Part shown: positions 25,775 to 62,535 of the stretch, piece after piece
Position numbering within the stretch: position 1 is the stretch's first letter
Layout: each line of letters begins with the position of its first letter
Assembly (NCBI GenBank): GCA_037142555.1
Contig: JBAXAJ010000001.1
Location: forward strand, 104,423-168,422
Direction of reading: 5' to 3'
Source: Candidatus Shapirobacteria bacterium
GTDB lineage: Bacteria > Patescibacteriota > Microgenomatia > UBA12405
Length of the DNA: 64,000 nt
Translations under genes and position numbers: made by a program
Notes under the pieces: model-generated
The model's input: only the letters and a program-made list of their open reading frames with translations
Database searches by the model: none
What the model was told of the DNA's origin: nothing

Positions 25775-26254
25775 ATGACTCCAGACACACATCAAAATAA
25801 AAGATTTGAAAGATATGAAAAACCAGTCAGTGAATTTTCTGAAAAGGTTGTTCAAATCAAAAGAGTATCTAAAAAAACTAAAGGTGGAAATCAAATCCAT
25901 TTTACTGCTCTTGTAGTTTCTGGTGACAAAAAATCACGAGTCGGTGTTGGTCTTGGAAAAGCTAAAAGCGTTTCTGAAGCTATTCAAAAGGGAATTAAAA
26001 AAGCTCAAAAAAATATGCTTACTGTTCCAATGGTTAATGGAACTATCTCTGCTTCTATTCAACTTAAATTTAAAGGTGCTGTCGTTTTAATTAGACCAGG
26101 AAAAGAGGGAAGTGGTTTAATTGCTGGTGGACCAGTCAGATCAGTTGTCGAACTAGCTGGAATTAAAGATATCGTTTCAAAAATTATTGGTTCTAAAAAC
26201 AAAGCAATTAACGTTTGGGCTACTCTCAAAGCTCTATCAACATTAAAGAAATAA
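25775..26254 (+). CDS. rpsE: 30S ribosomal protein S5
   Basis: …VVQIKRVSKKTKGG…VGLGKAKSV… S5 motifs. Confidence 0.95.
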   Translation: MTPDTHQNKRFERYEKPVSEFSEKVVQIKRVSKKTKGGNQIHFTALVVSGDKKSRVGVGLGKAKSVSEAIQKGIKKAQKNMLTVPMVNGTISASIQLKFKGAVVLIRPGKEGSGLIAGGPVRSVVELAGIKDIVSKIIGSKNKAINVWATLKALSTLKK

Positions 26255-26258
26255 CACT

Positions 26259-26708
26259 ATGGAAATCTTAAATAAATTAAATAAAACTACTACTAAATCA
26301 AAAAGAAGACTCGGTCGAGGAATCGGTTCTGGAAATGGGGGTCACACTGTTGGTCGTGGTGCTAAAGGTGACAAAGCTCGAGGTAAAAACAAATTAACTT
26401 TCGATGGTCAAAAAATCAAAAAATCTTGGATTAAACGTCTACCTTTCTTAAGAGGTAAACACCGAACCCTTAAAAGAAATGAAACTATGGTTCTAAATCT
26501 TAATCATCTAGAAAAATGGTTCAAAAAAGACGAAGTTGTCGATCTTAACTCAATCTCTAAAAAAATTAAATTATCACCAAAAGATCTCATTGGTAGAATC
26601 AAAATTCTTTCCGATGGAGAACTCACAAAAGCTTTAACTATAAAGAATGTTTTAGTATCAAAAGATGCTGCTAAAAAAATTATTGCTGCCGGTGGTAATA
26701 TAGATTAA
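26259..26708 (+). CDS. rplO: 50S ribosomal protein L15
   Basis: …[16 protein letters not shown]… L15 motif. It starts 4 nt after rpsE, which leaves no room for rpmD. Confidence 0.95.
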
Positions 26709-32830: not shown

Positions 32831-33796
32831 ATGAAAACATCCTCAATCGCCAAATTTTTAGTAGTAGCTCTAGTTCTAGGAGCTGGTGTGACCTTTGGAA
32901 CTCAAATGGTTCAAAAGAACCAAGAAAACCGAAGTCAAGCATTTGTTCCAGTAGCTGTTTGGGGATTAATATTAGTAGGAGATGCGATAGCTACTTGGAT
33001 TGCCACTCACCCAGATGCAACTCAGGCAATCGGTGAAGCAGCTTCTGAGACAGCGGGAGGAGTAGTGGATCTTTTAGACGATCCTGCAAATCCAGAGAGA
33101 CAAAGAATAATTGATGCAAATGCAGCAGCTTTAAAGTGTCCTGCTGGTTCAAAATATGAATGTCCTCCACTCACTTCACGGGGCGAAGGACCACCATGTG
33201 GTTGCAATAATAATGGTACTTGGACTCCAGTCTTAGTTAAAAAAGATGGTAAGTGTAGTACTAAAAATTATAATACTTGTGAATATGGTGCTGTTTATGA
33301 TAATTTAAAAGACACTACAACACAAGTTCTATGGCAATGTAAGGGTTCTGTTGGTGGCCAAACTGATTTTTGTACTGCGAACAAACCAAAAATCAATGGT
33401 ATTTGTTCTACAACAAAAAATAAATGTACTAAAGGAAAATATTCAGAACTTAAAGACACTGAAGATTATTATTATTGGATGTGTAATGGCACAGCCAATG
33501 GAACATCAGCTAAGTGTCATTCTTCAAAACCTAATAAAGTCAATGGCATTTGTTCAAACACAAAATATTCTTGTTCTAGCGGGACAGTAGTTAATAAAGT
33601 TGACACTACAATTGCCTACAAATGGAGCTGTAAAGGATCTAATGGTGGAAGCCAAACTCCTTGTGATGTAGATAAGCCTGGTGCTTGTGGTAAAACAAAG
33701 AATTCATGTTCTGCTGGTAAGTGGACTGATGTCACTGACACCACAGCTGCTTATAAATGGAAATGTGCAAATATTATTTGTAGTCTTAAAAAATGA
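32831..33796 (+). CDS. Secreted/membrane-anchored cysteine-rich repeat protein, paralog A (321 aa)
   Basis: N-terminal MK..IAKFLVVALVLGAGV.FGTQMVQKNQENRS module shared with B-D. The C-terminus carries repeated C-x5-C-x2-GK(Y/W)-x5-DT-x3-YKWKC modules. The stop overlaps the B start (ATGA). Confidence 0.8.
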   Translation: MKTSSIAKFLVVALVLGAGVTFGTQMVQKNQENRSQAFVPVAVWGLILVGDAIATWIATHPDATQAIGEAASETAGGVVDLLDDPANPERQRIIDANAAALKCPAGSKYECPPLTSRGEGPPCGCNNNGTWTPVLVKKDGKCSTKNYNTCEYGAVYDNLKDTTTQVLWQCKGSVGGQTDFCTANKPKINGICSTTKNKCTKGKYSELKDTEDYYYWMCNGTANGTSAKCHSSKPNKVNGICSNTKYSCSSGTVVNKVDTTIAYKWSCKGSNGGSQTPCDVDKPGACGKTKNSCSAGKWTDVTDTTAAYKWKCANIICSLKK

Positions 33797-34644
33797 AAAA
33801 ATTTAAAATAGCCAAATTTCTTGTAATAGCTTTAGTTCTAGGAGGAGGTCTTTTTTATGGAACCCAAATGGTTCAAAAAAATCAAGAAAACAGAAGTAAT
33901 GCTGCCGGGGGAGCTTTGGTAGCTGAAGGTATCGGAAAATTAGTTGCACCTTACGCAAAAGAGGCAATAAAGGGGTTAAAAGGTAATGACCCAATGCCAA
34001 CAGAAATTTATAAAAGTGGCACTGCTGTATGTGGTTTAAAAAGTTCATGTGAATCTGGGACATATGCACCTTTCTCTAGTGATGATAAGGAAATAAAATG
34101 GACTTGTCAAAAAGGTACTGGACTTAAGCTATTATGCAAGTATATAAAACCTAAAGTTGATGGTCTCTGTTCCACAGATAGAAATAAATGTAGGGCAGGA
34201 ACATTTAAAGAGTCTAAAGACAGTGAAGACCACTATTATTGGCTTTGTGAAGGAATAAATGGTGGATCATCACCATTATGTAATAAACCCAAACTAGTTT
34301 CTCGTGGTGGCACCGACAGACCAATCAAAGGTGTTTGTGGCGAAACAAAAAATTCATGTTCTACTGGTAAGTGGTCTGAAACCACTGACACCACAACTGC
34401 TTATAAATGGAAATGCAATACAACAGTTTGTTTAAAAGACAAAGCTCCTCTATGTGGTGTTTATGCTTTTGATGGTAAACCTATCAAAACAGCTTCTTGT
34501 TATGTTGGTAGTTTAGACAGACCAAACTTCGGACTAGCAATTTATGATGTCACTATTAATGGTAAAAAATATAAAGCATGGTATTGTAAAAACGGTAGTA
34601 GTAAAGTTTCCTGCACAAACAAAACGCCTGTCATAAACTATTAA
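33793..34644 (+). CDS. Cysteine-rich repeat protein, paralog B (283 aa)
   Basis: Shared N-terminal module; the C-terminal ~80 aa are near-identical to C at the DNA level. Confidence 0.8.
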   Translation: MKKFKIAKFLVIALVLGGGLFYGTQMVQKNQENRSNAAGGALVAEGIGKLVAPYAKEAIKGLKGNDPMPTEIYKSGTAVCGLKSSCESGTYAPFSSDDKEIKWTCQKGTGLKLLCKYIKPKVDGLCSTDRNKCRAGTFKESKDSEDHYYWLCEGINGGSSPLCNKPKLVSRGGTDRPIKGVCGETKNSCSTGKWSETTDTTTAYKWKCNTTVCLKDKAPLCGVYAFDGKPIKTASCYVGSLDRPNFGLAIYDVTINGKKYKAWYCKNGSSKVSCTNKTPVINY

Positions 34645-34685
34645 ATTCAAATTTTTTCCAAAAACAAAGCTTATTTACACTAATC

Positions 34686-34748
34686 ATTGACAAAGTTTCA
34701 AATTATATCTATCTTTAAATAACATTTAACAATCTTATTTAAAAATAT
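34686..34748 (+). promoter_or_regulatory. Conserved upstream element (copy 2) with the palindrome at 34715-34729
   Basis: ttgacaaagtttcaaattatatctatctttaaataacatttaacaatcttatttaaaaatat, about 90% identical to copy 3. Confidence 0.55.
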
Positions 34749-35606
34749 ATGAAAAAACTAGGAATAGCCAAATTTTTGGTCATAGCCTTAGTTCTAGGTG
34801 GTGGATTAATTTATGGAACCCAAATGGTTCAAAAGAACCAAGAAAATAGAAGCAAAGCCGCTGAATATGGTAAAACATATAATAATGGAGATGTTATTTG
34901 TGGTGTATCTATACCAGCTGATTGGAGAGGATTAGCAAAATGGAAGCTTCCAAGTGAAATATCTGACGCGGCTGTTGATGAATTTGAAAATGCAGTTTTT
35001 AAATGTAACAAAGATAAATGTACTTTCTCAACTGATTCTATAGGTGACTGGCAATATCTTGAATTTTGTGGCCCAGTTGCAAATACTAGGAAATCTTGCC
35101 AAGAAATAAATGGAGTTAATGCTTCTTGTAAAAATATTGAGGGTGCTTGTGCTTCTAAATTAAATACTTGTCAAAATGGAAAGTTTAAAGATACTGCTGA
35201 CACTCCAACTGAATATAAATGGAATTGTGAAGGAGTTTCAATTTTAGGTGGTACCACAAGTGGTACCACAGCATCTTGTTCTATAAAAAAACAAGTTTGT
35301 GGTGCCAACAGAAATACTTGTAAAATTGGTAAATATTCAAAACTGGATGACACTAACAACCAATATAAATGGAAATGCAATACAACAGTTTGTTTAAAAG
35401 ACAAAGCTCCTCTATGTGGTGTTTATGCTTTTGATGGTAAACCTATCAAAACAGCTTCTTGTTATGTTGGTAGTTTAGACAGACCAAACTTCGGACTAGC
35501 AATTTATGATGTCACTATTAATGGTAAAAAATATAAAGCATGGTATTGTAAAAACGGTAGTAGTAAAGTTTCCTGCACAAACAAAACACCATCTATAAAC
35601 TATTAA
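34749..35606 (+). CDS. Cysteine-rich repeat protein, paralog C (285 aa)
   Basis: Shared N-terminal module, a different middle region, and a C-terminus shared with B. Confidence 0.8.
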   Translation: MKKLGIAKFLVIALVLGGGLIYGTQMVQKNQENRSKAAEYGKTYNNGDVICGVSIPADWRGLAKWKLPSEISDAAVDEFENAVFKCNKDKCTFSTDSIGDWQYLEFCGPVANTRKSCQEINGVNASCKNIEGACASKLNTCQNGKFKDTADTPTEYKWNCEGVSILGGTTSGTTASCSIKKQVCGANRNTCKIGKYSKLDDTNNQYKWKCNTTVCLKDKAPLCGVYAFDGKPIKTASCYVGSLDRPNFGLAIYDVTINGKKYKAWYCKNGSSKVSCTNKTPSINY

Positions 35607-35685
35607 ATTAAAATTTTTTCCAGAAAAAACTGAAATTATTATTCTTTCGAATATTTAACATCAGTCATTGTTTCTTTTGCTAATA

Positions 35686-35747
35686 ATTGACAAAGTTTCA
35701 AATTATATATATCTTTAAATAACATTTAACAAATTTATTTAAAAAAA
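35686..35747 (+). promoter_or_regulatory. Conserved upstream element (copy 3) with the palindrome at 35715-35729; an A8 tract directly abuts the ATG
   Basis: ttgacaaagtttcaaattatatatatctttaaataacatttaacaaatttatttaaaaaaaatg. Confidence 0.55.
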
Positions 35748-36632
35748 ATGAAAAAATTAGGAATAGCAAAATTTTTAGTAATGGCTCTAGTTCTAGGCGG
35801 TGGATTAATTTATGGAACTCAAATGGTTCAAAAGAACCAAGAGAACAGAAGTAAAGCCGCTAATGAAATTACAACACAAGATGGACCCTGTGGTTCTACT
35901 GCTAATGTATGTCTTGATGGGAGACCTGCAACTAACATAACTTCAGACGCTGTTAAGAACAACTGGAAATGCCCATATAATGGAGGATTCGCTAGTTGTG
36001 TATTAATTAAACCAGGTGAATGTGGCACTAAAGCATATGGTGATTGTGTTGCTGGAAAATATCAAAATATAAATGGCACTAACACTCAATGGAAATGTGC
36101 TAATGTTACTTGCTCTATCCCAAAAACTGCAATACCAAAAGGACCTTGCGGTTCTACTGCTAATGTATGTCTTAATGGTGGATCTGCAACCAACATAACT
36201 TCAGATGCTGTTAAGAGCAACTGGAAATGCCCATATAATGGAGGATTAGCTAGTTGTATTTTAATTAAACCAGGTAAATGTGGTACTAAGTCGTATGGTG
36301 ATTGTATTAGTGGAACATATCAAAATATAAATGGCACTAACACTCAATGGAAATGTGCTAATGTTACTTGCTCTATGCCAAAAGTAGTTACAGCACCAAA
36401 AGGACCTTGTAGTACTACTGCCAATAAATGTGTTGATGGGAGACCTGCAACCAACATAACTTCAGATGCTGTTAAGAACAACTGGAAATGCCCATATAAT
36501 GGAGGATTCGCTAGTTGTATTTTAATTAAACCAGGCGAATGTGGCATTAAATATGGTAATTGTATTAGTGGAAAATTTGAAAAAATAAACGACATTCAGT
36601 GGAAATGTGCTAATGTTACTTGCTCTCTTTAA
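35748..36632 (+). CDS. Cysteine-rich repeat protein, paralog D (294 aa), built from three ~87-aa tandem repeats
   Basis: Shared N-terminal module. PKGPCGSTANVC…NWKCPYNGG…QWKCANVTCS is repeated three times with ~90% DNA identity. Confidence 0.8.
   Translation: MKKLGIAKFLVMALVLGGGLIYGTQMVQKNQENRSKAANEITTQDGPCGSTANVCLDGRPATNITSDAVKNNWKCPYNGGFASCVLIKPGECGTKAYGDCVAGKYQNINGTNTQWKCANVTCSIPKTAIPKGPCGSTANVCLNGGSATNITSDAVKSNWKCPYNGGLASCILIKPGKCGTKSYGDCISGTYQNINGTNTQWKCANVTCSMPKVVTAPKGPCSTTANKCVDGRPATNITSDAVKNNWKCPYNGGFASCILIKPGECGIKYGNCISGKFEKINDIQWKCANVTCSL
35880..36632 (+). repeat. Three tandem ~260-bp repeats inside paralog D
   Basis: 35883-36140, 36141-36407 and 36408-36629 align base by base with few substitutions. 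Confidence 0.8.
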
Positions 36633-37603: not shown

Positions 37604-38560
37604 TTATATTTGTCCTGACATAAATTCTTTCCAAATTAAATATAATTCAGAAGTGGCAGTTGCATCTCTGGCCACATAGTCAGCAATTTTATTAAATTCA
37701 CTTTCATTAAAAAGTCGAGTCACATCATCTCCATGAACTCCTTCTTCTTTTGGATTTTCAATTCCAAAAGCCTTACAAATCATTTCTAGTTTAAAACTAC
37801 GGCCATTTTGTCTTATTCTGTTGGCCAAATCAATTGATTTATCAAATCCCCATTTTTTAATTTCAAATGGCATTTTTACTCGATTAATTCCTGATCGAAT
37901 CATTAAGAAAGGAAAATCAAAACCATCACCATTGTAAGTCACAAATTCTTCATAATTAGGTGTAATTTTCCAAAATTCTTCTAATAGCTCTTTTTCAGTT
38001 TTAAAAGTTTTATAAACAAAGTTTTCTTTCTCTGGCTTAATTTCTTTTGTTGATAGACTTAAAACAATACCAGTTTTTTTACCGATGTCATAAGCACCAA
38101 TTGCACAAACACTTCCAAAAATAGAGTATAAACCAGTTTTTTTCTTAGCTATTTCTTTGTCAGTCTCATTTTTTTCTAGATTATTTAAAAGATAGTCTTT
38201 TTCAACTTCATCCAAATCTTCAAATTTTTTTCCTAAAGTTTCAATATCAAAAACTAAAGTTGGAACAGAAGGGGAGAAATCACTAGCATTTTCACTTTCA
38301 ACAATTTGACAACTATCAATAATTAATCCTACTTTACCGTTATATTCTTGCGTCTTACCATTAACTTCAATAACTTTTCCTTCCTCAAAATTACACATCG
38401 AGATATTATTATTCCAAATTTTAGCTTCAATACAACCATTTATATCGCAAAGTTCAAGAATATAATAATTATCTCCTTTAACTGTTTGTCTAACTTCTTT
38501 GCTTTTAACTACAAAATGTCTGTCTCTAATTAATTCATTTGCTCCAATTTTTATTGCCAT
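37604..38560 (-). CDS. Predicted 3'-5' exonuclease (DEDD/RNase H-like fold, PolB-exo/YprB-like) with an N-terminal OB-fold
   Basis: LVFDIETLG (Exo I) and YNGDGFDFPFL (Exo II, DEDDy-like) motifs. The N-terminus VVKSKEVRQTVKGDNYYILELCDINGCIEAKIW is OB-fold-like. Confidence 0.55.
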   Translation of the reverse strand: MAIKIGANELIRDRHFVVKSKEVRQTVKGDNYYILELCDINGCIEAKIWNNNISMCNFEEGKVIEVNGKTQEYNGKVGLIIDSCQIVESENASDFSPSVPTLVFDIETLGKKFEDLDEVEKDYLLNNLEKNETDKEIAKKKTGLYSIFGSVCAIGAYDIGKKTGIVLSLSTKEIKPEKENFVYKTFKTEKELLEEFWKITPNYEEFVTYNGDGFDFPFLMIRSGINRVKMPFEIKKWGFDKSIDLANRIRQNGRSFKLEMICKAFGIENPKEEGVHGDDVTRLFNESEFNKIADYVARDATATSELYLIWKEFMSGQI

Positions 38561-39489: not shown

Positions 39490-39563
39490 TCGGGGATACA
39501 GGATTCGAACCTGCAACCTCACACACCCCATGCGTGCACGCTAGCCAATTGCGCCAATCCCCG
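39490..39563 (-). tRNA. tRNA-Pro (anticodon GGG)
   Basis: The reverse complement folds as a cloverleaf: acceptor CGGGGAT/ATCCCCG, D-arm GCGC…GCGT, anticodon stem CACGC/GTGTG with loop AT-GGG-GT, and T-arm GCAGG-TTCGAAT-CCTGT. No encoded CCA. Confidence 0.85.
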
Positions 39564-44281: not shown

Positions 44282-47200
44282 TTGTCTAAAAATTTGATCA
44301 AGTTTAGGTTCAAATTACCAATAAAGAAAAAAGTTTCAGACTATTTTTTTGCGCCTCGTTTTTACTTCTCCAGATTTCAGTTTAATTTAATCGCTGTTTT
44401 ATTCATCAGCATCGGTCTTGCCACTGGGACTTATTTAACCATGTCCAAAGTGATTTTACCTTCAATCTTCGCTGTGTCTCAAACTTCCAACACCCTAAAT
44501 TTTGATGTCGGCAGTTCTGGTAATTATAATTATGACACCTCCTCAGTCACTATTGGTGCCAGTGGTGTCCAACCAATAGCAACCAACAAATTTTCTAATT
44601 CTAGTTTCGCCACTAATAGTGTTGGTTGGACTTCAGATATCATAGTTCCAAATGGTTATGTCAAAGTTCCTGGAAATTCAACTTTTAGTACTACTGATTT
44701 TGCTGTTATGAAATATGAAGCTAAATGTGCTTCCACAAGTGACCCTGCTACTGGTTTAACAAGTCCTACTTTTATACCATTTTATACTTATAAAAATAAT
44801 GTAGATGATTGTATTTCAGCTAATAATAAGCAAGTAGTTTCAGTAGCTAATGGATATCCAATTGCCTTAATTACTCAGCCTGATGCAATCACCAAATGTG
44901 CCAGTGTTTCTGTTTCCGGTGCCACTGCTCATTTAATTAATAATAATGAATGGATGACTATTGCCAGAAATGCTGAAGCTCAAAACACCAATTGGTCTCT
45001 AGGCGCTGTTGGTTCTGGTTATTTATATGCCGGTAATAATAACATTGATACAAGTTACTCTCATTATATTTACAATGCATCGACTAATGATACAGGTAAT
45101 TATCGTTGTGCTTACACTAACACTGGTTCTTCAGACAATCCATCTCCTTGTCCTTATAACACAGCTCAAAATACTTCTGGAACTAGGGGAAGTCAAGTCA
45201 GAGTTTTAAAATTATCAAATAATGAATCAATTTGGGATATGGCGGGAAATGTTGGAGAGTGGATTAATAATACTCAAACAGGCACAACTATAGGCCCTAG
45301 TAGTATTTTAGAGTGGAATTCTTCTAGCCTTGCTTCTGGAGCTAGAGATCTTTATGGGCCATCAAGCTCTTCATATCTTAAAGCCCAGGGAATGGGGTCT
45401 TTCACTGGTGGTGCTTTGGGTAATGTTTTTATGCGTGGAGGTATTTATCTTGACTCTTTAGATGCTGGTATTTATAGTTTAAGTTTAAGTTCTAGTTCTT
45501 CTTATTTATATCCTGGAATTGGTTTTCGTTGTGCCATTTCTGGTAATGTTTTATCACAAGTATCAAATGTTGGTTTAGGAGCAAGTGGAGCTGCAAAAAT
45601 TATTGCTAATCCTGGATCAGATTCTAAGATTTATCAGACAATGGCCAATCTTACTACCAATTCTACTTACGACTTTTCCGCCTATGTTTATAATAATACT
45701 GCTGGTGGTATTGGTGGCACAGTCAATGCTTCTATTGCTCAACTAGAATATAATGGAGTTGGAATTACTACTACCTACACTAATTCAGGTTCAGGTTGGT
45801 GGAAACTTTCCGCCACCGTCACTGCGGCCAGTGGCTCACAAGAATTTGGTCTTCTAACCAAAGCCGGCAAAACAGTCTTTTCTGATAATTTTAGTTTAAT
45901 TCCTATTATTTCTCCTATCTACACCACCACTTCTTTTTATAATCGTCAAATTATGGAATGGAGCTCTTTTAGTGCAGTTGGCACTACTTTTGCCACTTCT
46001 CCAATTACTTATCAACTTTGTTCAACCGATGCTTCTATTTGTGAAAGTAGTAATACTTGGCAATATTGGAATGTCTCCAGTTCCACTTGGTCCAACGCCA
46101 CCAATCTCACTATGACTAATACTGCCGGAGATATAAATACTCATATCAGCACTTTCCCTGTCACCAACAAAAAAATTGCTGTCAAAATCATTATGACTTA
46201 TGATGGCACCAATGTTCCAACTCTTAGTTCCATTAATTATGGTTTTAAAATTGATAATCTTGCTCCAGTGACTAATGCTTCAAGTGTAATAATGAATTCT
46301 TCAATCGGCTTAACTTGGGCTAACACAAATCCATCTTTTACTTGGACAGCTGCCACAGATGATGATCCAAGTGCTTCAGGAATAAAGGGCTACTGTCTAT
46401 CTTTATCCACTACCACCGGTGGTGTCGATCCAGTTTCTTCAAAAGGCAAACTAGGCACTTCTCCAGTCCCTATTTCTGATAATATTTGTCAATTTATTGT
46501 TCCTTCAAATTCTCTAAATTTAAATACCGCTGGCTATTTAGCCTCGGCATTACTTGATTCTGAAGAAACTTATTATTTAAACATTAAAGCTATTGATAAT
46601 GTAAACAATGTTTTCCCTACTTCAACTTATTTTGAGTTCAAATATGACTCTACTAAACCTAGAAATGTCTCTTATATTTCTCCAGCTTCTGGCAATTTTT
46701 CCAATGTCGTTGATATGAGTTTTTCTTGGCCAATCAGTGTTGGTAGTAGTGTATCTTCATCAGATAGTGGCAGTGGAATTTTGGGTTGGCAATACCAAAT
46801 AAATACTAATGATGCTGATAAATGGCAAGGAAGCACTACGGCTCCAGAATTAGGTGGCCTAAAATATATTCCTAGTGGCACTTCTAGTTATAGCCTAGTT
46901 GAAGGTAAAGATGCTATTGTTTCCGGAAACAATGTTATTTACTTCAGAACTGTCGATAAAGCCGGCAATTTTTCTACCGATGCTACTATTCGCACTGGTA
47001 ATATTGCTTTTGGTGGTGCGGCTCCTGCTTTCAACCAAAATAATAGTGTCACTATCAATCCTAATACTTCTACAACTAATTCTTTTGCTCTGTCTTGGCC
47101 AAGTGCCACTGCTACTAATGGTCAAAGTGTCACTAATTATTACTATATGTTAAACACTCCACCACCATCAACTTTAGCCACTCTACAGGGTAATATTTCA

Positions 47201-48904
47201 ACCTATATCAACAATGGCACTGCAACCACAGTTGCTGTCAAAAGTCTTCCAAATGTCAACAAAGGTACTAATACTGTCTATGTTGTTGCAGTCGATAGTG
47301 CCAACAATTATTCACCATCAAATTACACTAGTGGTACTTTTGTTCTAGATTCCAATACTCCCGACAATGTCAGCAATTTAGTTTCTTCTGATTCTTCAAT
47401 CAAATCTCAATCTCAATGGAATATTACTCTTACTTGGACCGCTCCAATCTATCAAGGTGCTGGCAATTTAATTTATCAAGTCTATCGATCAACCGATGGT
47501 GTTAATTTTGCTCAAGTTGGTTCTTCTACTGGCCTTTCCTATGTCGATAATACTCCAGCTTCAAGCAAATATTATTACAAAGTCTATACCAAAGATGGTG
47601 CCAATGCGGTCTCTTCTGGTACTAATGCTGTTTCTATTACTCCAACTGGTAAATGGACTACTTCTCCAATTATTGATTCCCAACCAACTACTTCTTCAGT
47701 AACTACCAAAAAAGCTACTGTCAATTGGTCTACTGACCGAAAAGCCGATTCTAAAATTGCTTTTGGAACTAAATCTGGCAGTTATAATACCGAAGAACCA
47801 AGTAATCCAACTCAAGTTTCCAGTCATTCCATTAATCTTACCGGTCTTTCTCCAGGAACCACTTATTATTATCGGGCCAAGTGGACAGATGAAGACGGAA
47901 ACACAGGAACCAGTGATGAAAAATCTTTCACCACTGCCGCTGCTCCAACAGTTAAAGATGTTTTAGTCAAAAATGTTAATCTAAGTTCAGCTTTAGTCCA
48001 GTTCACTTCAACTGGAGCTAGTAAAGTCAAGGTTTATTATGGCACCAGCACCGCTTTTGGCGGAGCCCTAGAAATTCATACTTCAACTTCTGAAGCTACT
48101 TATACAGTCAACTTAATTGGTTTACTCGATGGCACAAAATATTATTACAAAATAAATGCTTTTGACAGTGAATCTAGTGAATATGAAGGCACAGTTCTAG
48201 ATTTCACCACTATTCCAAGACCAAAAATTTCTAGCGTTCAACTCCAAGAAGTAGCTGGAACTTCTCAATCTACAATTTTAGTCACTTGGAACACTAACAC
48301 CGAAATTTCTTCAATTGTCACTTATTATCCAGAAGGTAAGCCAGAACAATCTCGAGATGAAGTCAGTATCCAATCAATCAAAGGCCAACACAAAATGATT
48401 CTTCGAGGCTTCACTCCTGAAACTAACTACATTTTAGTTGTTAAAGGTCGTGACAAAATTGGCAATGAAGCAGTTTCTGATAATCATCATTTCACCACTG
48501 CCACCGACACCAGACCACCACAAATTTCTAGTCTACTAGTTGAAGGTCAAAATGTTCCAACAGTTTCTGGTGCTGCTCAAGAATCAACAGCTCAATTAAT
48601 CGTTTCTTGGAACACTGATGAACCAGCCACTTCTCAAGTTGAATTTAGTGAGGGAACTGGTGCCACTTATTCTCAAAAAACTCAAGAAGATGCAAAACTT
48701 ACCTACAACCATCTAGTCATTATTTCTGGTCTAACAGCTTCAAAAGTCTATCACTTGAAAGCAATTTCCAGAGATAAAGCCAATAACACTGGTAAATCAA
48801 TTGACACTGTCACTATCACTCCAAAAGCCACTGATAATGCTCTAAACTTAGTTGTTTCCAATCTAGGCCAAGTATTTGGTTTCTTAGGAGGATTTAATAA
48901 ATAA
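44282..48904 (+). CDS. Giant membrane-anchored surface protein (1540 aa): N-terminal TM, FGE-sulfatase (SUMF1-like) domain, Ig/FN3-like repeat array
   Basis: TM helix LIAVLFISIGLATGTYLTM. IWDMAGNVGEW and …YLYPGIGFRCAISG match the formylglycine-generating-enzyme fold signature. The C-terminal half holds ~100-aa FN3-like repeats (…TVNWSTD…TYYYRAKWTDEDGNTG…). The TTG start is uncertain. Confidence 0.7.
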   Translation: MSKNLIKFRFKLPIKKKVSDYFFAPRFYFSRFQFNLIAVLFISIGLATGTYLTMSKVILPSIFAVSQTSNTLNFDVGSSGNYNYDTSSVTIGASGVQPIATNKFSNSSFATNSVGWTSDIIVPNGYVKVPGNSTFSTTDFAVMKYEAKCASTSDPATGLTSPTFIPFYTYKNNVDDCISANNKQVVSVANGYPIALITQPDAITKCASVSVSGATAHLINNNEWMTIARNAEAQNTNWSLGAVGSGYLYAGNNNIDTSYSHYIYNASTNDTGNYRCAYTNTGSSDNPSPCPYNTAQNTSGTRGSQVRVLKLSNNESIWDMAGNVGEWINNTQTGTTIGPSSILEWNSSSLASGARDLYGPSSSSYLKAQGMGSFTGGALGNVFMRGGIYLDSLDAGIYSLSLSSSSSYLYPGIGFRCAISGNVLSQVSNVGLGASGAAKIIANPGSDSKIYQTMANLTTNSTYDFSAYVYNNTAGGIGGTVNASIAQLEYNGVGITTTYTNSGSGWWKLSATVTAASGSQEFGLLTKAGKTVFSDNFSLIPIISPIYTTTSFYNRQIMEWSSFSAVGTTFATSPITYQLCSTDASICESSNTWQYWNVSSSTWSNATNLTMTNTAGDINTHISTFPVTNKKIAVKIIMTYDGTNVPTLSSINYGFKIDNLAPVTNASSVIMNSSIGLTWANTNPSFTWTAATDDDPSASGIKGYCLSLSTTTGGVDPVSSKGKLGTSPVPISDNICQFIVPSNSLNLNTAGYLASALLDSEETYYLNIKAIDNVNNVFPTSTYFEFKYDSTKPRNVSYISPASGNFSNVVDMSFSWPISVGSSVSSSDSGSGILGWQYQINTNDADKWQGSTTAPELGGLKYIPSGTSSYSLVEGKDAIVSGNNVIYFRTVDKAGNFSTDATIRTGNIAFGGAAPAFNQNNSVTINPNTSTTNSFALSWPSATATNGQSVTNYYYMLNTPPPSTLATLQGNISTYINNGTATTVAVKSLPNVNKGTNTVYVVAVDSANNYSPSNYTSGTFVLDSNTPDNVSNLVSSDSSIKSQSQWNITLTWTAPIYQGAGNLIYQVYRSTDGVNFAQVGSSTGLSYVDNTPASSKYYYKVYTKDGANAVSSGTNAVSITPTGKWTTSPIIDSQPTTSSVTTKKATVNWSTDRKADSKIAFGTKSGSYNTEEPSNPTQVSSHSINLTGLSPGTTYYYRAKWTDEDGNTGTSDEKSFTTAAAPTVKDVLVKNVNLSSALVQFTSTGASKVKVYYGTSTAFGGALEIHTSTSEATYTVNLIGLLDGTKYYYKINAFDSESSEYEGTVLDFTTIPRPKISSVQLQEVAGTSQSTILVTWNTNTEISSIVTYYPEGKPEQSRDEVSIQSIKGQHKMILRGFTPETNYILVVKGRDKIGNEAVSDNHHFTTATDTRPPQISSLLVEGQNVPTVSGAAQESTAQLIVSWNTDEPATSQVEFSEGTGATYSQKTQEDAKLTYNHLVIISGLTASKVYHLKAISRDKANNTGKSIDTVTITPKATDNALNLVVSNLGQVFGFLGGFNK

Positions 48905-54927: not shown

Positions 54928-55895
54928 AAACAAATAAAATTGAAATTTCTCAAAAAACCATCATTTTCACTATTTTATTTCTAATTGCTCTTGGCCTACT
55001 TTGGTTAATCAAAGATGTAATTGTCTTGTTTTTTGTTTGTTTTATTTTAATGCAAGCCATAAATCCAGCTGTTGTCCGTTTAGAAAAATTTAAAGTTCCT
55101 AGAATTTTAGGTATAGTCTTAATCTATTTATTAATTTTAATCGCAATTGTTCTTTCTTTTGCTGGAATAATTCCAATTCTAATTGAACAAACAACTGGTC
55201 TAGCTAAAACCCTACCAGATTTAATCAAAAATGCCTCTTTCTTTGGGATTTCCACTGCTGATTTATCTTCACAATTTAAAATTCTAGAAAGTCTTCCAGG
55301 TGGAATTGCCAACACCGCTTTCGCCATTTTATCTAACTTATTTTCTGCCATAGTTATTTTAATGGTCACTTTCTATCTACTCCTAGAAAGAAAAAATATG
55401 GGTGATTATAGTATTAAATATTTTGGTCAAAACACCGGTTCTAAAATCAAAAAAATTATTGATCAACTAGAAATTAGACTAGGTAGCTGGGTCAGTGCTG
55501 AAGTGTTGTTAATGATTATTATCGGGATTCTTTCATTCATTGGGTATTCACTTCTTGGTTTAAAATATGCCGTAGCCTTAGCATTAATTGCTGGGATACT
55601 AGAAATAGTCCCTAATATTGGTCCAATTATCTCAGTGATTTTAGCTTCAATAATTGGTTTCACAGTTTCACCAACCATTGGTCTTTTAACAATTCTAGTT
55701 GGAACTATTGTCCAACAATTAGAGAACAATTTGATTGTCCCAAAAATAATGAAAGAAACTTGTAACATCAGTCCTGTAATAACAATCTTATTACTTATGG
55801 TTGGGGCTAAACTAGGGGGAGTTGTTGGTGCTATTATAGCCGTCCCAATATACATGACAGCTGAAGTCATTTTTAAGACATTAAAAAAACCCTAA
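54924..55895 (+). CDS. AI-2E family (UPF0118/PerM-like) transporter
   Basis: About 8 TM helices; conserved C-terminal …GAIIAVPI… region. Confidence 0.6.
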   Translation: MKTNKIEISQKTIIFTILFLIALGLLWLIKDVIVLFFVCFILMQAINPAVVRLEKFKVPRILGIVLIYLLILIAIVLSFAGIIPILIEQTTGLAKTLPDLIKNASFFGISTADLSSQFKILESLPGGIANTAFAILSNLFSAIVILMVTFYLLLERKNMGDYSIKYFGQNTGSKIKKIIDQLEIRLGSWVSAEVLLMIIIGILSFIGYSLLGLKYAVALALIAGILEIVPNIGPIISVILASIIGFTVSPTIGLLTILVGTIVQQLENNLIVPKIMKETCNISPVITILLLMVGAKLGGVVGAIIAVPIYMTAEVIFKTLKKP

Positions 55896-55896
55896 A

Positions 55897-56168
55897 GAAA
55901 CTGATAAGCTGGATTTTGTTTAAGGATCATCTATCTATTCTCTCTACCTGAGGCTCTCAAAAGCTAGATATTAACGCCTCATCTTGAGATTTCCACCAGA
56001 AGGATGCTCGTTTCACTTCAGCCGCCGTAGCCTTCTTGCGAAGGTGGCTAGCTTGCTCGTCTCTGTAGCATTGCCCAAAGCTCACGCCCTGGCCCCTAAG
56101 GACTTCTGTGCTTTTTGTGGTCCAGACTTTCCTCCCCGAAAAATCGGGGTAGACCCTTCAACTTCTTT
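55897..56168 (-). ncRNA. rnpB: RNase P RNA (bacterial type A, reduced to ~270 nt)
   Basis: The minus-strand transcript contains GGAGGAAAGUCUGGAC (P4 5' strand), …ACAGAGACGAGCAAGC…, …GAAGUGAAACGAGC…, …CAAGAUGAGGCG…, and ACAAAAUCCAGCUUAUCAG (P4 3' strand, matching E. coli ACAGAACCCGGCUUAUCGG). The 5' AAAGAAGUUGA pairs with the 3' UCAGUUUCUUU to form P1. GC content is locally elevated. Confidence 0.8.
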
Positions 56169-56187
56169 AAGGTTGATGTATTTTACC

Positions 56188-56216
56188 AAAAAAAACCCCC
56201 CGAAGCTTCGGGAGGT
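56188..56216 (-). terminator. Rho-independent terminator (minus strand) for the small gene 56245-56418
   Basis: cctcccgaag/cttcggggg palindrome followed by T8 on the minus strand. Confidence 0.6.
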
Positions 56217-56244
56217 TAAAAACAAATTTTGTTTTTAATATCAC

Positions 56245-56418
56245 CTATAGCAAAGCTGCATCAGCTGCTGAAAGGATTTTGAACATTTTTGTTCCAGTTT
56301 CTGGATCAATAGTCTCAGCTGCTGGTCGTCCGTTCTTAAGAGTAACTTTCTTGACCTTAGTTACATCGATTTCAACAGTCTTTCTTGATTTTACGTTGTA
56401 AAATTTAATGGTTGTCAT
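56245..56418 (-). CDS. Small basic protein (57 aa), possibly DNA-binding with an SH3-like fold
   Basis: GGGGGTG Shine-Dalgarno 8 nt before the ATG. MTTIKFYNVKSRKTVEIDVTKVKKVTLKNGRPAAETIDPETGTKMFKILSAADAALL. A terminator lies downstream. Confidence 0.6.
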   Translation of the reverse strand: MTTIKFYNVKSRKTVEIDVTKVKKVTLKNGRPAAETIDPETGTKMFKILSAADAALL

Positions 56419-58202: not shown

Positions 58203-58764
58203 TCTAAAACATCTCTTTGTTTCTCAAACTAGACTGAAATTAATAAATACTCTCTTTTATTTACCAAAAGAAATCTATTATGTTCGTCAACTAGTCAGAC
58301 TTCTAGATGAAGAAATCAATTCAGTCAGACGTGAACTTGATAATCTTAAAAAGGCTGACATTGTTGAATCAGAATGGCGAGGTAACAGACTCTATTATTG
58401 GGCTAATCAAAAAAACCAACTCTTTCACGAGCTTCTAGCCTTAGCTAATAAAACTAGTGGATTGGGAGTTAAACTCCAAGACAAAAACAACGATATAGGC
58501 AAAATTAAGCTATTAATTTACAGTTATAAATTCATAACTTGTGAAAAGAAAAACCCTGATGACATTGATTTAATCATTGTCGGCAATGTTTCCTATAAAG
58601 AAGTAGAAAATAATATAAAACAAGAAGAAGAAATTCGTGGTCATGAAATAAATTACATGATAATGGATAAGAACGAATTCCAAATGCGTAAGCAAAAACG
58701 CGATCAATTTATTGTTGACTTCTTTCTCGACTGTCCTGTTGTTATAATAGGTAGTAATGAGTAA
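58186..58764 (+). CDS. Winged-HTH protein with a C-terminal nucleotidyltransferase-like (…DIDLIIVG…) region
   Basis: ArsR-like wHTH (LVRLLDEEINSVRRELDNLKKADIVES). The start could be TTG 58180. Confidence 0.45.
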   Translation: MKAQSSLKHLFVSQTRLKLINTLFYLPKEIYYVRQLVRLLDEEINSVRRELDNLKKADIVESEWRGNRLYYWANQKNQLFHELLALANKTSGLGVKLQDKNNDIGKIKLLIYSYKFITCEKKNPDDIDLIIVGNVSYKEVENNIKQEEEIRGHEINYMIMDKNEFQMRKQKRDQFIVDFFLDCPVVIIGSNE

Positions 58765-58948
58765 AGCAAGAAAAGTAATTAAAACAGGGAACAGTTTAGC
58801 CATAACTATTCCTTCAAAATCAATCAAAGATTTTAATATTAAAGAAGGGGATTTAGTTCAAGCTAAAATAAACAGAAGTAAGGCTTCAATAACCTACGTG
58901 TTTTCTGGTCACCCTCGCCAACTTTCACTAATGGCTCAAAAAAACTAA
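58757..58948 (+). CDS. SpoVT/AbrB-domain (MazE/PemI antitoxin-like) small protein (63 aa)
   Basis: VIKTGNSLAITIPSKSIKDFNIKEGDLV matches the looped-hinge-helix consensus (…GNSxxVxIPK…GxxEGDxV). Confidence 0.55.
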   Translation: MSKARKVIKTGNSLAITIPSKSIKDFNIKEGDLVQAKINRSKASITYVFSGHPRQLSLMAQKN

Positions 58949-60324: not shown

Positions 60325-61187
60325 ACATAATGAAATTTCGAAAAATCTTCTACATCATTTCTCTAACTCTAATTGCCGTTTCAGTTTTTTCAATTGTAAA
60401 ATGGGGATTCAGAACTTCAATCGACTTTTCTGGTGGAACCAATTGGGAATTTGTTTTGCCAAATAATCCATCAAAAGAGAAAATAGCCGAAGCTTTCAAT
60501 CAAAATAACATAACTCTTTCTTCAATAGATTCAAACGGAAAGAATAATTTCACCCTAAAATTTGCCAACATTTCAACTGACCAAAAGAAAATTCTTGACG
60601 ATTCTATGGTCAAAATCGATAAAGACTATAAAGAATTAAAATTTGAAACTCTTGGTCCAATCCTAGGAAAAGAATTACTCAGAAAAACCATCACTGCCAT
60701 AATTTTATCATCACTATTTTTGCTAATTTTCATTGGTACTCGTTTCAAAGATTTCACTTTTGGGGCTGGTGCTGTTTTAGCCATGTTCCACGATTCATTA
60801 ATTTTGATTGGGGCTTTTTCAATTCTCGGTCATTTCTTTGGAGCCGAACTAGACGCTCTTTTTGTAACTGCTCTTCTTACAACTCTTGCTTCCTCAGTCC
60901 ATGACACAGTTGTCACTTTTGACAGAATGCGCGAACTAAAAAGACGAAACTTTAAATTTGATTGGGTTGATCTTGCCAATCAAGCTGTGACCGAAACTTT
61001 AACCAGATCTATCAATAACTCTATGACCATCATTTTGATGTTACTATCTCTAGTTATGTTAGGTGGTTCTACTACCAAATGGTTTGCCACCGCTCTCTTA
61101 ATCGGTGTCATCTGTGGAACTTATTCCTCAACCGGTGTTGCCATCCCTCTAGTTCTACTTGCCAAAAAATATCTCAAAAAGAAGTAA
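60321..61187 (+). CDS. secF: Protein translocase subunit SecF
   Basis: Located after secD with ATGA overlap; …DFSGGT… and a 5-TM C-terminal region. Confidence 0.85.
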   Translation: MNIMKFRKIFYIISLTLIAVSVFSIVKWGFRTSIDFSGGTNWEFVLPNNPSKEKIAEAFNQNNITLSSIDSNGKNNFTLKFANISTDQKKILDDSMVKIDKDYKELKFETLGPILGKELLRKTITAIILSSLFLLIFIGTRFKDFTFGAGAVLAMFHDSLILIGAFSILGHFFGAELDALFVTALLTTLASSVHDTVVTFDRMRELKRRNFKFDWVDLANQAVTETLTRSINNSMTIILMLLSLVMLGGSTTKWFATALLIGVICGTYSSTGVAIPLVLLAKKYLKKK

Positions 61188-62535
61188 TTTTTTCCAACAA
61201 AATCTCTCTCTCATTTAATTCTGGTTTTTCTTCAACCTCTTTAAATATAGCTTCCAAAACTTCACCAACTTTTCGGCCTGGTTTAATTTTCAAAATTTCC
61301 ATCACATCTTGACCATTAACTTTTAAGTCCTTTATACAAAATGGTTGTTTTTGCACTTCCACAATTCTTTCCTTAAAAAGTTCCCATCTCCAACTACTTT
61401 CTTTAGCCCCACTTCCAAGTCTATCAGCCCGTCTTAGAGCGATCATTTCGTCAATATAATCTAAAGTGACGTTTCGAATAAATCTTCGCACCGCTTTGTC
61501 TGTTTGAGTGGCCTCAGTTGTGAACATATGCCATCTGACTAATTTGAATAATTGGTCTAATTCTTTATTAGAAAATCTTAATCTCTTACCAACAGCAACC
61601 GCAATTCTTGATCCAATTATTTCGTGATTATGAAAAGTTCTAGCTTCTCCATCTCCAAACATTGATCTAGGTTTTCCTACATCGTGTAATAAACTAGCCA
61701 ATTTTGTAATTGGATTTTCAGTCGCACAATTATCCAAAGTTTTTAAATTATGATTCCAAACATCATCAATATGGTGGCCTTTTTGAGCCATTCCAACTCC
61801 ATCTAATAATTCTGGAATAATTTGTTCCAAAAGACCAGAATCTCTCAAAAGTTCAATTCCGGCTGATGGAATAGGCGAGACTAATATTTTAAAAAGTTCA
61901 TCTCTAATCCTTTCCCCAGCCACATTATTAATTAATTTAGCGTTTTTTTGAATTGATTTAAAAGTTTTCTCTTCAATTAAAAATCCTAATTGAGAAGCAA
62001 TTCTAATCGCTCTCATCATTCTCAAAGCATCTTCACCAAATCTTTCATCTGCATCTCCCACAGTTCTGATTAATCTATTTTTTAAATCAACTTGTCCACC
62101 ATACAAATCAGTTATTTTTAATTTACTATCCAAGGCGATTGCATTAATAGTGAAATCTCTTCTTTGCAAATCCTCTTCTAAACTTTTTCCCCATTTAACT
62201 TCATCAGGATGTCTTTTGTCAGAATAGCCTTGTTCAGTTCTAAAAGTTGTTATTTCAAAAATATCATCGCCATCAAGAACACTAAAAGTTCCAAAGACAT
62301 TATTACAAAAACTATTTTTAGGAAATATTTTCCTCATCTCTTCTGGAGTCAAATTGGTGGTGAAATCCCAATCTTTAACCTTTCTCTCCAAAATCAAATC
62401 ACGAACAGCTCCGCCGATAATATAAATTTCAGCGCCATTTTCTTCAAACTTTTTGATTAATTTTTCTACTTTATTAGGGATATTAAATTCCATGCCCAAT
62501 TTTACTACATTTCGAGGATAAAAAAATAAACCCAC
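61174..62535 (-). CDS. cca: CCA-adding enzyme / tRNA nucleotidyltransferase with an HD domain
   Basis: IIGGAVRDLIL…DWDF head domain; HD motif LLHDVGKP. The start is possibly the internal M at 62493. Confidence 0.75.
   Translation of the reverse strand: MGLFFYPRNVVKLGMEFNIPNKVEKLIKKFEENGAEIYIIGGAVRDLILERKVKDWDFTTNLTPEEMRKIFPKNSFCNNVFGTFSVLDGDDIFEITTFRTEQGYSDKRHPDEVKWGKSLEEDLQRRDFTINAIALDSKLKITDLYGGQVDLKNRLIRTVGDADERFGEDALRMMRAIRIASQLGFLIEEKTFKSIQKNAKLINNVAGERIRDELFKILVSPIPSAGIELLRDSGLLEQIIPELLDGVGMAQKGHHIDDVWNHNLKTLDNCATENPITKLASLLHDVGKPRSMFGDGEARTFHNHEIIGSRIAVAVGKRLRFSNKELDQLFKLVRWHMFTTEATQTDKAVRRFIRNVTLDYIDEMIALRRADRLGSGAKESSWRWELFKERIVEVQKQPFCIKDLKVNGQDVMEILKIKPGRKVGEVLEAIFKEVEEKPELNEREILLEKITSF

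Follow-up and report, generated by a model that had tools for sequence, protein, structure and literature searches.

The 64-kb stretch of contig JBAXAJ010000001.1 analysed here (the window) carries on its minus strand, at 55894-56168, a gene for the RNA of ribonuclease P (RNase P), rnpB, with a length of 275 nucleotides (nt) counted from P1 to P1. RNase P removes the 5' leader from precursor tRNAs. It is very probable that the locus is the functional rnpB of a Microgenomatia bacterium of the candidate phyla radiation (CPR, or Patescibacteria), encoding the catalytic RNA of the enzyme, and that the reduced layout found throughout its clade equals that of archaeal type A RNA by loss of the same helices and not by ancestry.

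Identification of the RNA and covariation among relatives

A scan of the whole window against Rfam at gathering thresholds gave one RNase P match, the sole other match being a tRNA-Pro. The RNase P match is to family RF00373 and runs from 55896 to 56166 on the minus strand (E=1.4e-31; 115.5 bits, with a gathering score of 84), covering the full model (positions 1-288 of 288). The first-pass annotation, made from the DNA sequence, had placed an RNase P RNA on this strand, and both the full-model match and the covariation in 14 sequences described below agree with it. The motifs that it quoted, among them the universal P4 strands, ACAGAGA and GUGAAAC, were all found where it had placed them, each once and in the expected order on the minus strand:

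56158-56168, minus strand: P1 5' strand AAAGAAGUUGA
56120-56135, minus strand: P4 5' strand motif GGAGGAAAGUCUGGAC
56051-56066, minus strand: motif ACAGAGACGAGCAAGC
56010-56016, minus strand: GUGAAAC
55976-55985, minus strand: motif AAGAUGAGGC
55901-55919, minus strand: P4 3' strand motif ACAAAAUCCAGCUUAUCAG
55894-55904, minus strand: P1 3' strand UCAGUUUCUUU

The P1 pairing between its two quoted strands (56158-56168 with 55894-55904) is likewise supported by covariation. Its start of the RNA at 55897 is 3 nt short, since its own P1 3' strand ends at 55894. The raised local content of G and C that it had noted amounts to 0.476 in the RNA compared with 0.346 in the window. Metagenome contigs from ENA (ERZ27300156) and Logan (SRR7053653) match the window, and the protein-only gene calls on the ENA contig leave the stretch of the RNA empty.

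Relatives obtained with two collection scans and twelve contig look-ups amounted to 26 syntenic loci, with the common gene order MiaA and AI-2E permease, followed by the RNA and a gene of 57 or 58 amino acids (aa) on the other strand. Complete or near-complete genomes with this locus include GCA_035397165.1 (contig DAOPES010000001.1) and GCA_023380755.1 (contig JAMCSD010000006.1). The 26 loci contain 14 distinct RNA sequences, which were aligned with MAFFT (72% mean column identity). Pairs were counted in the helices that MAFFT aligned in register, giving 59 pairs in 11 helices (P1, P2, P4, P5, P6, P7, P9, P10, P11, P15 and P16). The proposed register has 97.0% of the cells paired and a covariation score of 0.546, compared with 35.7-51.9% and 0.07-0.16 after a shift of the 3' partners by 1-3 columns. 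Compensatory double changes were found in 40 of the 59 pairs. For four of five measures none of 500 shuffles matched the observed values, while for the measure 'further pair types' 35 of 500 did. The pseudoknots P4 and P6 are both supported, with two covarying pairs in P4 and double changes in five of the six pairs of P6. The substitutions in the alignment track base-pairing, a pattern that indicates purifying selection on structure.

RNAalifold, run without the manual model, finds P1, P3, P4, P5, P7, P8, P9, P10, P11, P15 and P16, together with a helix of 2 base pairs (bp) flanking the 3' strand of P6. The latter covaries (UA:7, CG:6) and is possibly a vestigial P17. Folds of the individual sequences give a P3 hairpin of 3-8 bp across the clade, a P8 stem in all sequences but L265 (13 of 14, three of them with a weak stem) and, on a segment of 17-41 nt, a P12 hairpin whose loop is in many cases GNRA.

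The anatomy of the window RNA is given below in paired elements (P), loops (L), joining segments (J) and conserved regions (CR). Window position 56168 is nt 1, all elements are on the minus strand, and double changes are compensatory.

nt 1-11 / 265-275 (56158-56168 / 55894-55904): P1; 11 pairs, 8 with double changes, 94% of cells paired
nt 13-17 / 241-245 (56152-56156 / 55924-55928): P2; 5 pairs, all 5 with double changes
nt 20-35 (56134-56149): P3, a minimal hairpin of 5-6 bp; per-sequence folds and RNAalifold columns 22-27/48-53, with 1-6 double changes each
nt 40-47 / 257-263 (56122-56129 / 55906-55912): P4 with bulged U43, catalytic core (CR-I / CR-V); 7 pairs, 100% paired
nt 49-52 / 173-176: P5; among the 11 helices counted for covariation
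nt 54-59 / 205-210 (56110-56115 / 55959-55964): P6 pseudoknot, AAAAGC with GCUUUU in the P16 loop; 6 pairs, 5 with double changes, 94% paired
nt 61-65 / 168-172 (5' strand 56104-56108): P7; 5 pairs, 3 covarying, 100% paired
nt 66-77 (56092-56103): P8 hairpin; per-sequence folds and RNAalifold
nt 78-93 (56076-56091): P9 hairpin with a GUGA (GNRA) loop; 6 pairs, all 6 with double changes
nt 94-102 / 161-167: P10/P11; among the 11 helices counted for covariation
nt 103-116 (56053-56066): J11/12 (CR-II), ACAGAGACGAGCAA; ACAGAGACGA invariant in 14 sequences
nt 117-148 (56021-56052): P12, a 32-nt hairpin with a GCAA loop; per-sequence folds, segment of 17-41 nt across the clade
nt 149-160 (56009-56020): CR-III, UGAAGUGAAACG; GUGAAACGA invariant, continuing directly into the P11 3' strand
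nt 180-183 / 225-228 (55986-55989 / 55941-55944): P15; 4 pairs, 3 covarying, 100% paired
nt 189-193 / 215-219 (55976-55980 / 55950-55954): P16 with a 21-nt loop; 5 pairs, 3 covarying, 100% paired
nt 220-224 (55945-55949): 3' side of L15, AGGUA, with GGU at 55946-55948; CAGGU invariant in 14 of 14, flanked by the covarying P15 and P16
nt 229-240 (55929-55940): linker GAAUAGAUAGAU from P15 to P2, in the place of P18; 12 nt in 14 of 14 and nearly invariant

P4 with its bulged U is formed by CR-I, GAGGAAAGUC, and CR-V, ACAnAAnnnnGCUUA, and both strands are invariant in the 14 sequences. Two of the P4 pairs covary, from C-G to U-A and from G-C to A-U. The universal catalytic core also includes the rest of P1-P5 and the P6 pseudoknot, while P7-P12 make up the specificity domain (S-domain). 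The S-domain junctions, CR-II (ACAGAGA) and CR-III (GUGAAAC), flank P12 and are both invariant in the clade. The segments without any change in the 14 sequences are CAGGU of L15, AGGAAAGUC of P4, ACAGAGACGA and GUGAAACGA. The P15-L15-P16 module, including its internal loop, spans 55941-55989 on the minus strand.

Reduced layout, classification and rival explanations

The RNAs keep P1-P12 with the P6 pseudoknot, P15, P16 and the GGU of L15. None of the 14 has inserted sequence for P13 and P14, only the 12 nt of UGAAGUGAAACG lying between P12 and the P11 3' strand, and none has room for P18, given the fixed 12-nt linker between P15 and P2. P17 is at most 2 bp. The loss of peripheral helices inferred in the first-pass annotation is correct. 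Of the helices that it named for checking (P12-P14 and P16-P17), P13 and P14 are gone, P17 is vestigial at best, and P12 and P16 are kept, as are P15 and P6; P18 is gone as well.

Bacterial RNase P RNAs are typically 340-420 nt (PMC4919922). The window RNA, of 275 nt from P1 to P1 or 271 nt by Rfam, is in the upper half of the span of its clade (252-291 nt). A metagenome scan that required short spacing gave RF00010 RNAs of 278-319 nt (134-251 bits) at 18 of 20 sampled loci. The description 'unusually small' at about 270 nt holds against the textbook type A RNA but not against the clade or these short type A RNAs, and small size alone is not exceptional.

The features of type B RNA (RF00011) are absent (P5.1, P10.1 and P15.1, with nothing inserted where P5.1 or P10.1 would lie), P16 is present and J5/7, of 8 nt, forms P6. 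The P6 pseudoknot and the P15-L15-P16 module with its invariant GGU are features of type A. Archaeal type A RNA corresponds to bacterial type A without P13/14 and P18 (PMC4919922, PMC2615603), and because the layout of the window RNA equals this published one, RF00373 wins for it. RF00010 and RF00011 had been named beforehand as the families to search with; an RNase P match of high significance was obtained, with RF00373 instead as the best family.

RF00373 is also the best family for the relatives L136 and L223. Of ten more clade members that share the layout it wins four (112-118 bits) and RF00010 wins six (103.9-112.9 bits), the latter just above the RF00010 gathering score of 100. RF00373 is thus best in 6 of the 12 relatives tested, and its scores in the clade are 103-118 bits. 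As the scan reports only the best family per clan (CL00002), it gives no RF00010 score for the window RNA. Since members with one and the same layout flip between the two families at similar scores, the RF00373 win, judged on these sequence scores, is a near-tie with RF00010 and no sign of archaeal ancestry.

The contig scan with the P4 15-mer GAGGAAAGTCTGGAC was too unspecific, returning matches in Chlamydiae and Bacteroidota as well as chance ones; a comparison of its loci with nhmmer gave no close relative. It gave RNAs of other Patescibacteria for contrast: those of Gracilibacteria, Peribacteria and Paceibacteria with the same 15-mer have lengths of 326-427 nt and RF00010 scores of 132-172 bits. 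The metagenome scan requiring short spacing returned mostly unrelated short type A RNAs, the only relatives being L136 and L223. With 82.3 bits on RF00010, a 311-nt RNase P RNA of Candidatus Campbellbacteria (L100, 501-811, plus strand) falls short of the threshold of 100, which makes it an independent case of the CPR RNAs below threshold that Lui et al. 2021 reported.

The host is a Microgenomatia-class CPR bacterium, similar to Woesebacteria and Shapirobacteria. The genes of the window are bacterial and include an FtsX-type permease, PurD, YchF, MiaA, the AI-2E permease, SecD/SecF and the CCA-adding enzyme, and further RecA, RecX, RNase Y, BacA and RmlBCD. The small gene adjoining the RNA has homologues that NCBI names, for example, Candidatus Woesebacteria, Candidatus Shapirobacteria and Patescibacteria group. 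A long ribosomal-protein operon has the order L18-S5-L15-SecY (25775-26708, plus strand), and because S5 ends at 26254 and L15 starts at 26259, after 4 nt, the L30 gene is missing. A missing L30 is a CPR trait, and its absence is consistent with a CPR genome. The first-pass annotation had taken a minimised RNA of this kind to be characteristic of reduced genomes, which fits a CPR host.

The archaeal layout bears on the possibility that the RNA is of archaeal origin, either as part of an archaeal or chimeric contig or through a CPR ancestor that gained an archaeal type A rnpB horizontally, together with archaeal-type proteins. This is given a very slight chance. The RF00373 wins for the window RNA and half of the relatives tested, and the layout itself, are as this origin would have them, but clade members of the same architecture are won by RF00010 at 104-113 bits with the models nearly tied, the neighbouring genes are all bacterial with synteny kept at 26 loci of Woesebacteria/Shapirobacteria-type genomes, and other CPR lineages have intermediate, reduced type A RNAs (PMC8172020). 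The window open reading frames (ORFs) scanned gave no family match to Pop5, Rpp21, Rpp29 or Rpp30. Horizontal transfer from archaea was rejected on the flipping of relatives to RF00010 at equal scores and on the bacterial context. The missing helices could also be read as erosion, the RNA being a decaying relic after a protein-only enzyme took over tRNA 5' processing. Several stabilising helices are indeed lost, rnpA was not seen in the window, and protein-only RNase P is known in Aquificaceae (cited in PMC8172020). A relic is nevertheless highly improbable, as the catalytic and substrate-binding nucleotides are invariant, all 11 counted helices are maintained by compensatory changes in 14 diverged sequences, a -10-like box is conserved before the RNA in every member seen, and the ORFs scanned hold no HARP-like match.

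On the plus strand the region also has an open frame of 84 codons that begins with TTG and has no interruption (55984-56238), and the resemblance to RNase P RNA would be incidental if this encoded a protein. The chance of that is practically negligible. The ORF has no Pfam match, runs across the intrinsic terminator upstream of the RNA and is not called on the matching ENA contig; L136 and L223, which conserve the RNA, have no ORF of at least 45 aa in the equivalent position, and the substitutions follow base-pairing rather than codon structure. The first-pass annotation had already called it an antisense artefact, and these results are in line with that.

Some observations weigh against a functional rnpB as the preferred explanation. 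The folding energy of the single sequence is no better than that of shuffles (z = -1.06), so that the evidence for the structure comes from covariation and homology; single-sequence folding energy is uninformative for a pseudoknotted ribozyme. The gene for the protein subunit, rnpA, is not in the 64-kb window, with no PF00825 match among 29 ORFs scanned and no PS00648 signature in six frames, and the protein partner is for that reason assumed. Finally, the tRNA-Pro gene has no CCA, so that a pairing of GGU with CCA would need CCA addition before 5' processing.

Putative transcription signals and neighbouring genes

The signals and the ORF surrounding the RNA are the following:

56189-56217, minus strand: intrinsic terminator of the upstream 57-aa gene, with a 10-bp stem (56217-56194) and a T-run; terminator prediction
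56180-56188, minus strand: TGgTAAAAT, putative extended -10 promoter, 12 nt upstream of P1; conservation
55883-55889, minus strand: run of 7 T, possible 3' end signal, starting 5 nt after P1; sequence
55984-56238, plus strand: 84-aa ORF with TTG start, artefact; covers the RNA and the upstream terminator

Each of the 14 distinct upstream sequences has a -10-like box shortly before P1. It is mostly TAAAAT, with the variants TAGAAT (L223), TAAATT (L264) and TATAAT (L265, L266 and L268). A scan for the standard -35/-10 consensus did not report the TGgTAAAAT box, and the promoter assignment consequently depends on conservation only. The RNA is probably transcribed from this extended -10 promoter of its own, directly after the terminator of the upstream gene. 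In L249-L253 and L264 (for example L251, 2677-2690) the terminator is absent, and the -10-like box (TAAAAT; TAAATT in L264) and the stop codon of the small gene overlap, so that the small gene and the RNA may be co-transcribed there.

At the other end the last 2 nt of the P1 3' strand lie within the AI-2E permease stop codon (55893-55895), in agreement with the earlier statement that the 3' end abuts it. The permease ORF (Pfam E=3.5e-60) ends at 55895 including the stop codon. The run of 7 T is the opposite strand of the C-terminal lysine codons of the permease, and T-runs follow P1 in the relatives too. The transcript would end at the stop codon of this convergent gene or slightly within it.

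Directly upstream of the RNA is the gene for a highly conserved, basic 57-aa protein (56245-56418, minus strand). It has 101 homologues, mostly of 57-58 aa, in Woesebacteria and Shapirobacteria. Pfam DUF5679 is found in 25 of 36 members of the family (best E 4.6e-8), and four of the 36 have a faint match to the Sso7d-type 7kD_DNA_binding family. The AlphaFold model (pLDDT 84.8) has five strands and a C-terminal helix and is closest, weakly, to the crenarchaeal Cren7 and Sac7d/Sso7d (TM ~0.55, best E 0.095, none at E<=0.001). It may be a small nucleic-acid-binding protein. As a subunit of RNase P it was rejected: distant homologues (P0097 and P0101) have no RNA-sized gap after them, and the adjacency to the RNA accordingly reflects synteny of the clade only.

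Other genes of the window were seen in passing. Four consecutive ORFs at 32831-36632 (plus strand), of 321, 283, 285 and 294 aa, have no Pfam match, are mutual paralogues (30-51% identity) and contain internal repeats; by sequence comparison they are a tandemly expanded family. A 1540-aa protein rich in Ser, Thr, Asn and Gly (44282-48904, plus strand) has an N-terminal hydrophobic segment, and its only Pfam domains, Fn3-like and of the purple-acid-phosphatase N-terminal type, are near the C-terminus. It is probably a large surface protein. A 318-aa protein (37604-38560, minus strand) has an OB-fold and a PolB-type 3'-5' exonuclease domain, and a 63-aa protein of the MazE/AbrB-like antitoxin type (58757-58948, plus strand) is encoded between a 194-aa ORF and SecD. 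The only tRNA in the 64 kb is tRNA-Pro(GGG) (39490-39563, minus strand), which has no encoded 3'-CCA, although the RNase P RNAs of the clade retain the invariant GGU for CCA binding. The gene for the CCA-adding enzyme is at 61174-62535.

Proposed function and comparison with known systems

By analogy with characterised RNase P, the RNA would act as the ribozyme subunit, with an active site made up of P4, which would hold catalytic metal ions, and the junctions beside it. J11/12 and the GUGAAAC segment would recognise the tRNA elbow (T/D-loop) and the GGU of L15 would pair with the 3'-CCA of the tRNA. Docking of the P9 GNRA loop on the long P1 would still be possible. Three struts (L18-P8, L14-P8 and L13-P12) are expected to be gone, and with these braces missing the fold probably leans more on protein and ionic conditions, as it does in archaeal type A RNAs, whose activity on their own is poor (PMC2615603). 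The partner is most likely an ordinary bacterial RnpA encoded elsewhere in the genome; in Patescibacteria, including Microgenomatia, RnpA is reported to be encoded near rpmH and dnaA (PMC12102498). It is very unlikely that the clade, having converged on the archaeal type A layout, compensates for the lost struts with a protein other than or besides RnpA, for which the highly conserved Cren7/Sso7d-like DUF5679 protein, encoded next to the RNA in the whole clade, would be one candidate. Were this so, the RNase P of the clade would be a move, within bacteria, in the direction of the protein-rich archaeal enzyme.

Reduced CPR RNase P RNAs have already been described, and the window RNA belongs to that kind. 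CPR genomes carry diverged RNase P RNAs, many without P13, P14, P16 and P17 (Lui, Nielsen and Arkin 2021, PLoS Comput Biol, PMC8172020). In the same study two Microgenomatia genomes (SRX3307784_bin_224 and ERX2165959_bin_53) lack P12, P13, P14 and P18, the CCA-binding motif is absent from 23 of 35 CPR RNAs, and 10 of the 35 were found only with a lowered RF00010 threshold (PMC8172020). The window RNA is of the same radiation and class, and has no P13, P14 or P18, and the scores of its clade on the bacterial type A model are likewise low or borderline. It differs in keeping P12, which is present in all 14 sequences, and also P16, P6 and the GGU, which is invariant in the clade. PMC8172020 describes no near-tie with, or win by, an archaeal Rfam model. 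New here are the 14-sequence covariation test for a single clade and the place of that clade on the boundary between RF00010 and RF00373. Because the scores straddle the models (~104-113 bits on RF00010, with its threshold of 100, and 103-118 on RF00373), annotation pipelines limited to bacterial models can miss the RNAs of the clade and pipelines with all models can label them 'archaeal'. A spurious antisense ORF may be called instead.

Compared with archaeal type A RNA (RF00373, for example Methanothermobacter thermautotrophicus), the layout is alike in P1-P12, P15/16 and P6 and in the absence of P13, P14 and P18. The differences are the bacterial host, the single RnpA expected in place of Pop5, Rpp21, Rpp29 and Rpp30, and the relatives in the clade that RF00010 matches equally well. 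The long P1 (11-13 bp) and the GNRA loop L9 make the bacterial L9-P1 contact possible, unlike what is reported for M. thermautotrophicus (PMC2615603). The core, P6, the P15-L15 GGU module and the conserved junctions are shared with bacterial type A RNA (RF00010; Escherichia coli and Thermotoga maritima), from which the window RNA differs in lacking P13, P14 and P18, in a P17 of at most 2 bp, in a P3 of only 5-6 bp and in its length of 275 nt compared with 340-420 nt. A bacterial type A ribozyme can, on this evidence, lose P13, P14 and P18 together yet keep P12, P6 and the CCA-binding GGU, and this joint loss has led convergently to the layout of archaeal type A. The clade would be a natural test case in which to ask how much S-domain and interdomain bracing is required by a bacterial RNase P that presumably has one protein subunit.

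Natural cases of single peripheral elements that are dispensable are found in Mycoplasma fermentans and the Aquificales. The RNase P RNA of M. fermentans is of type B, lacks P12 and is about 276 nt; it is similar in size to the window RNA but of the other type and with a different helix lost. Aquificales RNAs lack P18 (Marszalkowski et al. 2006, as cited in PMC2615603). By that citation they lose P18 only, whereas the window RNA loses P13, P14 and P18 together on a type A scaffold.

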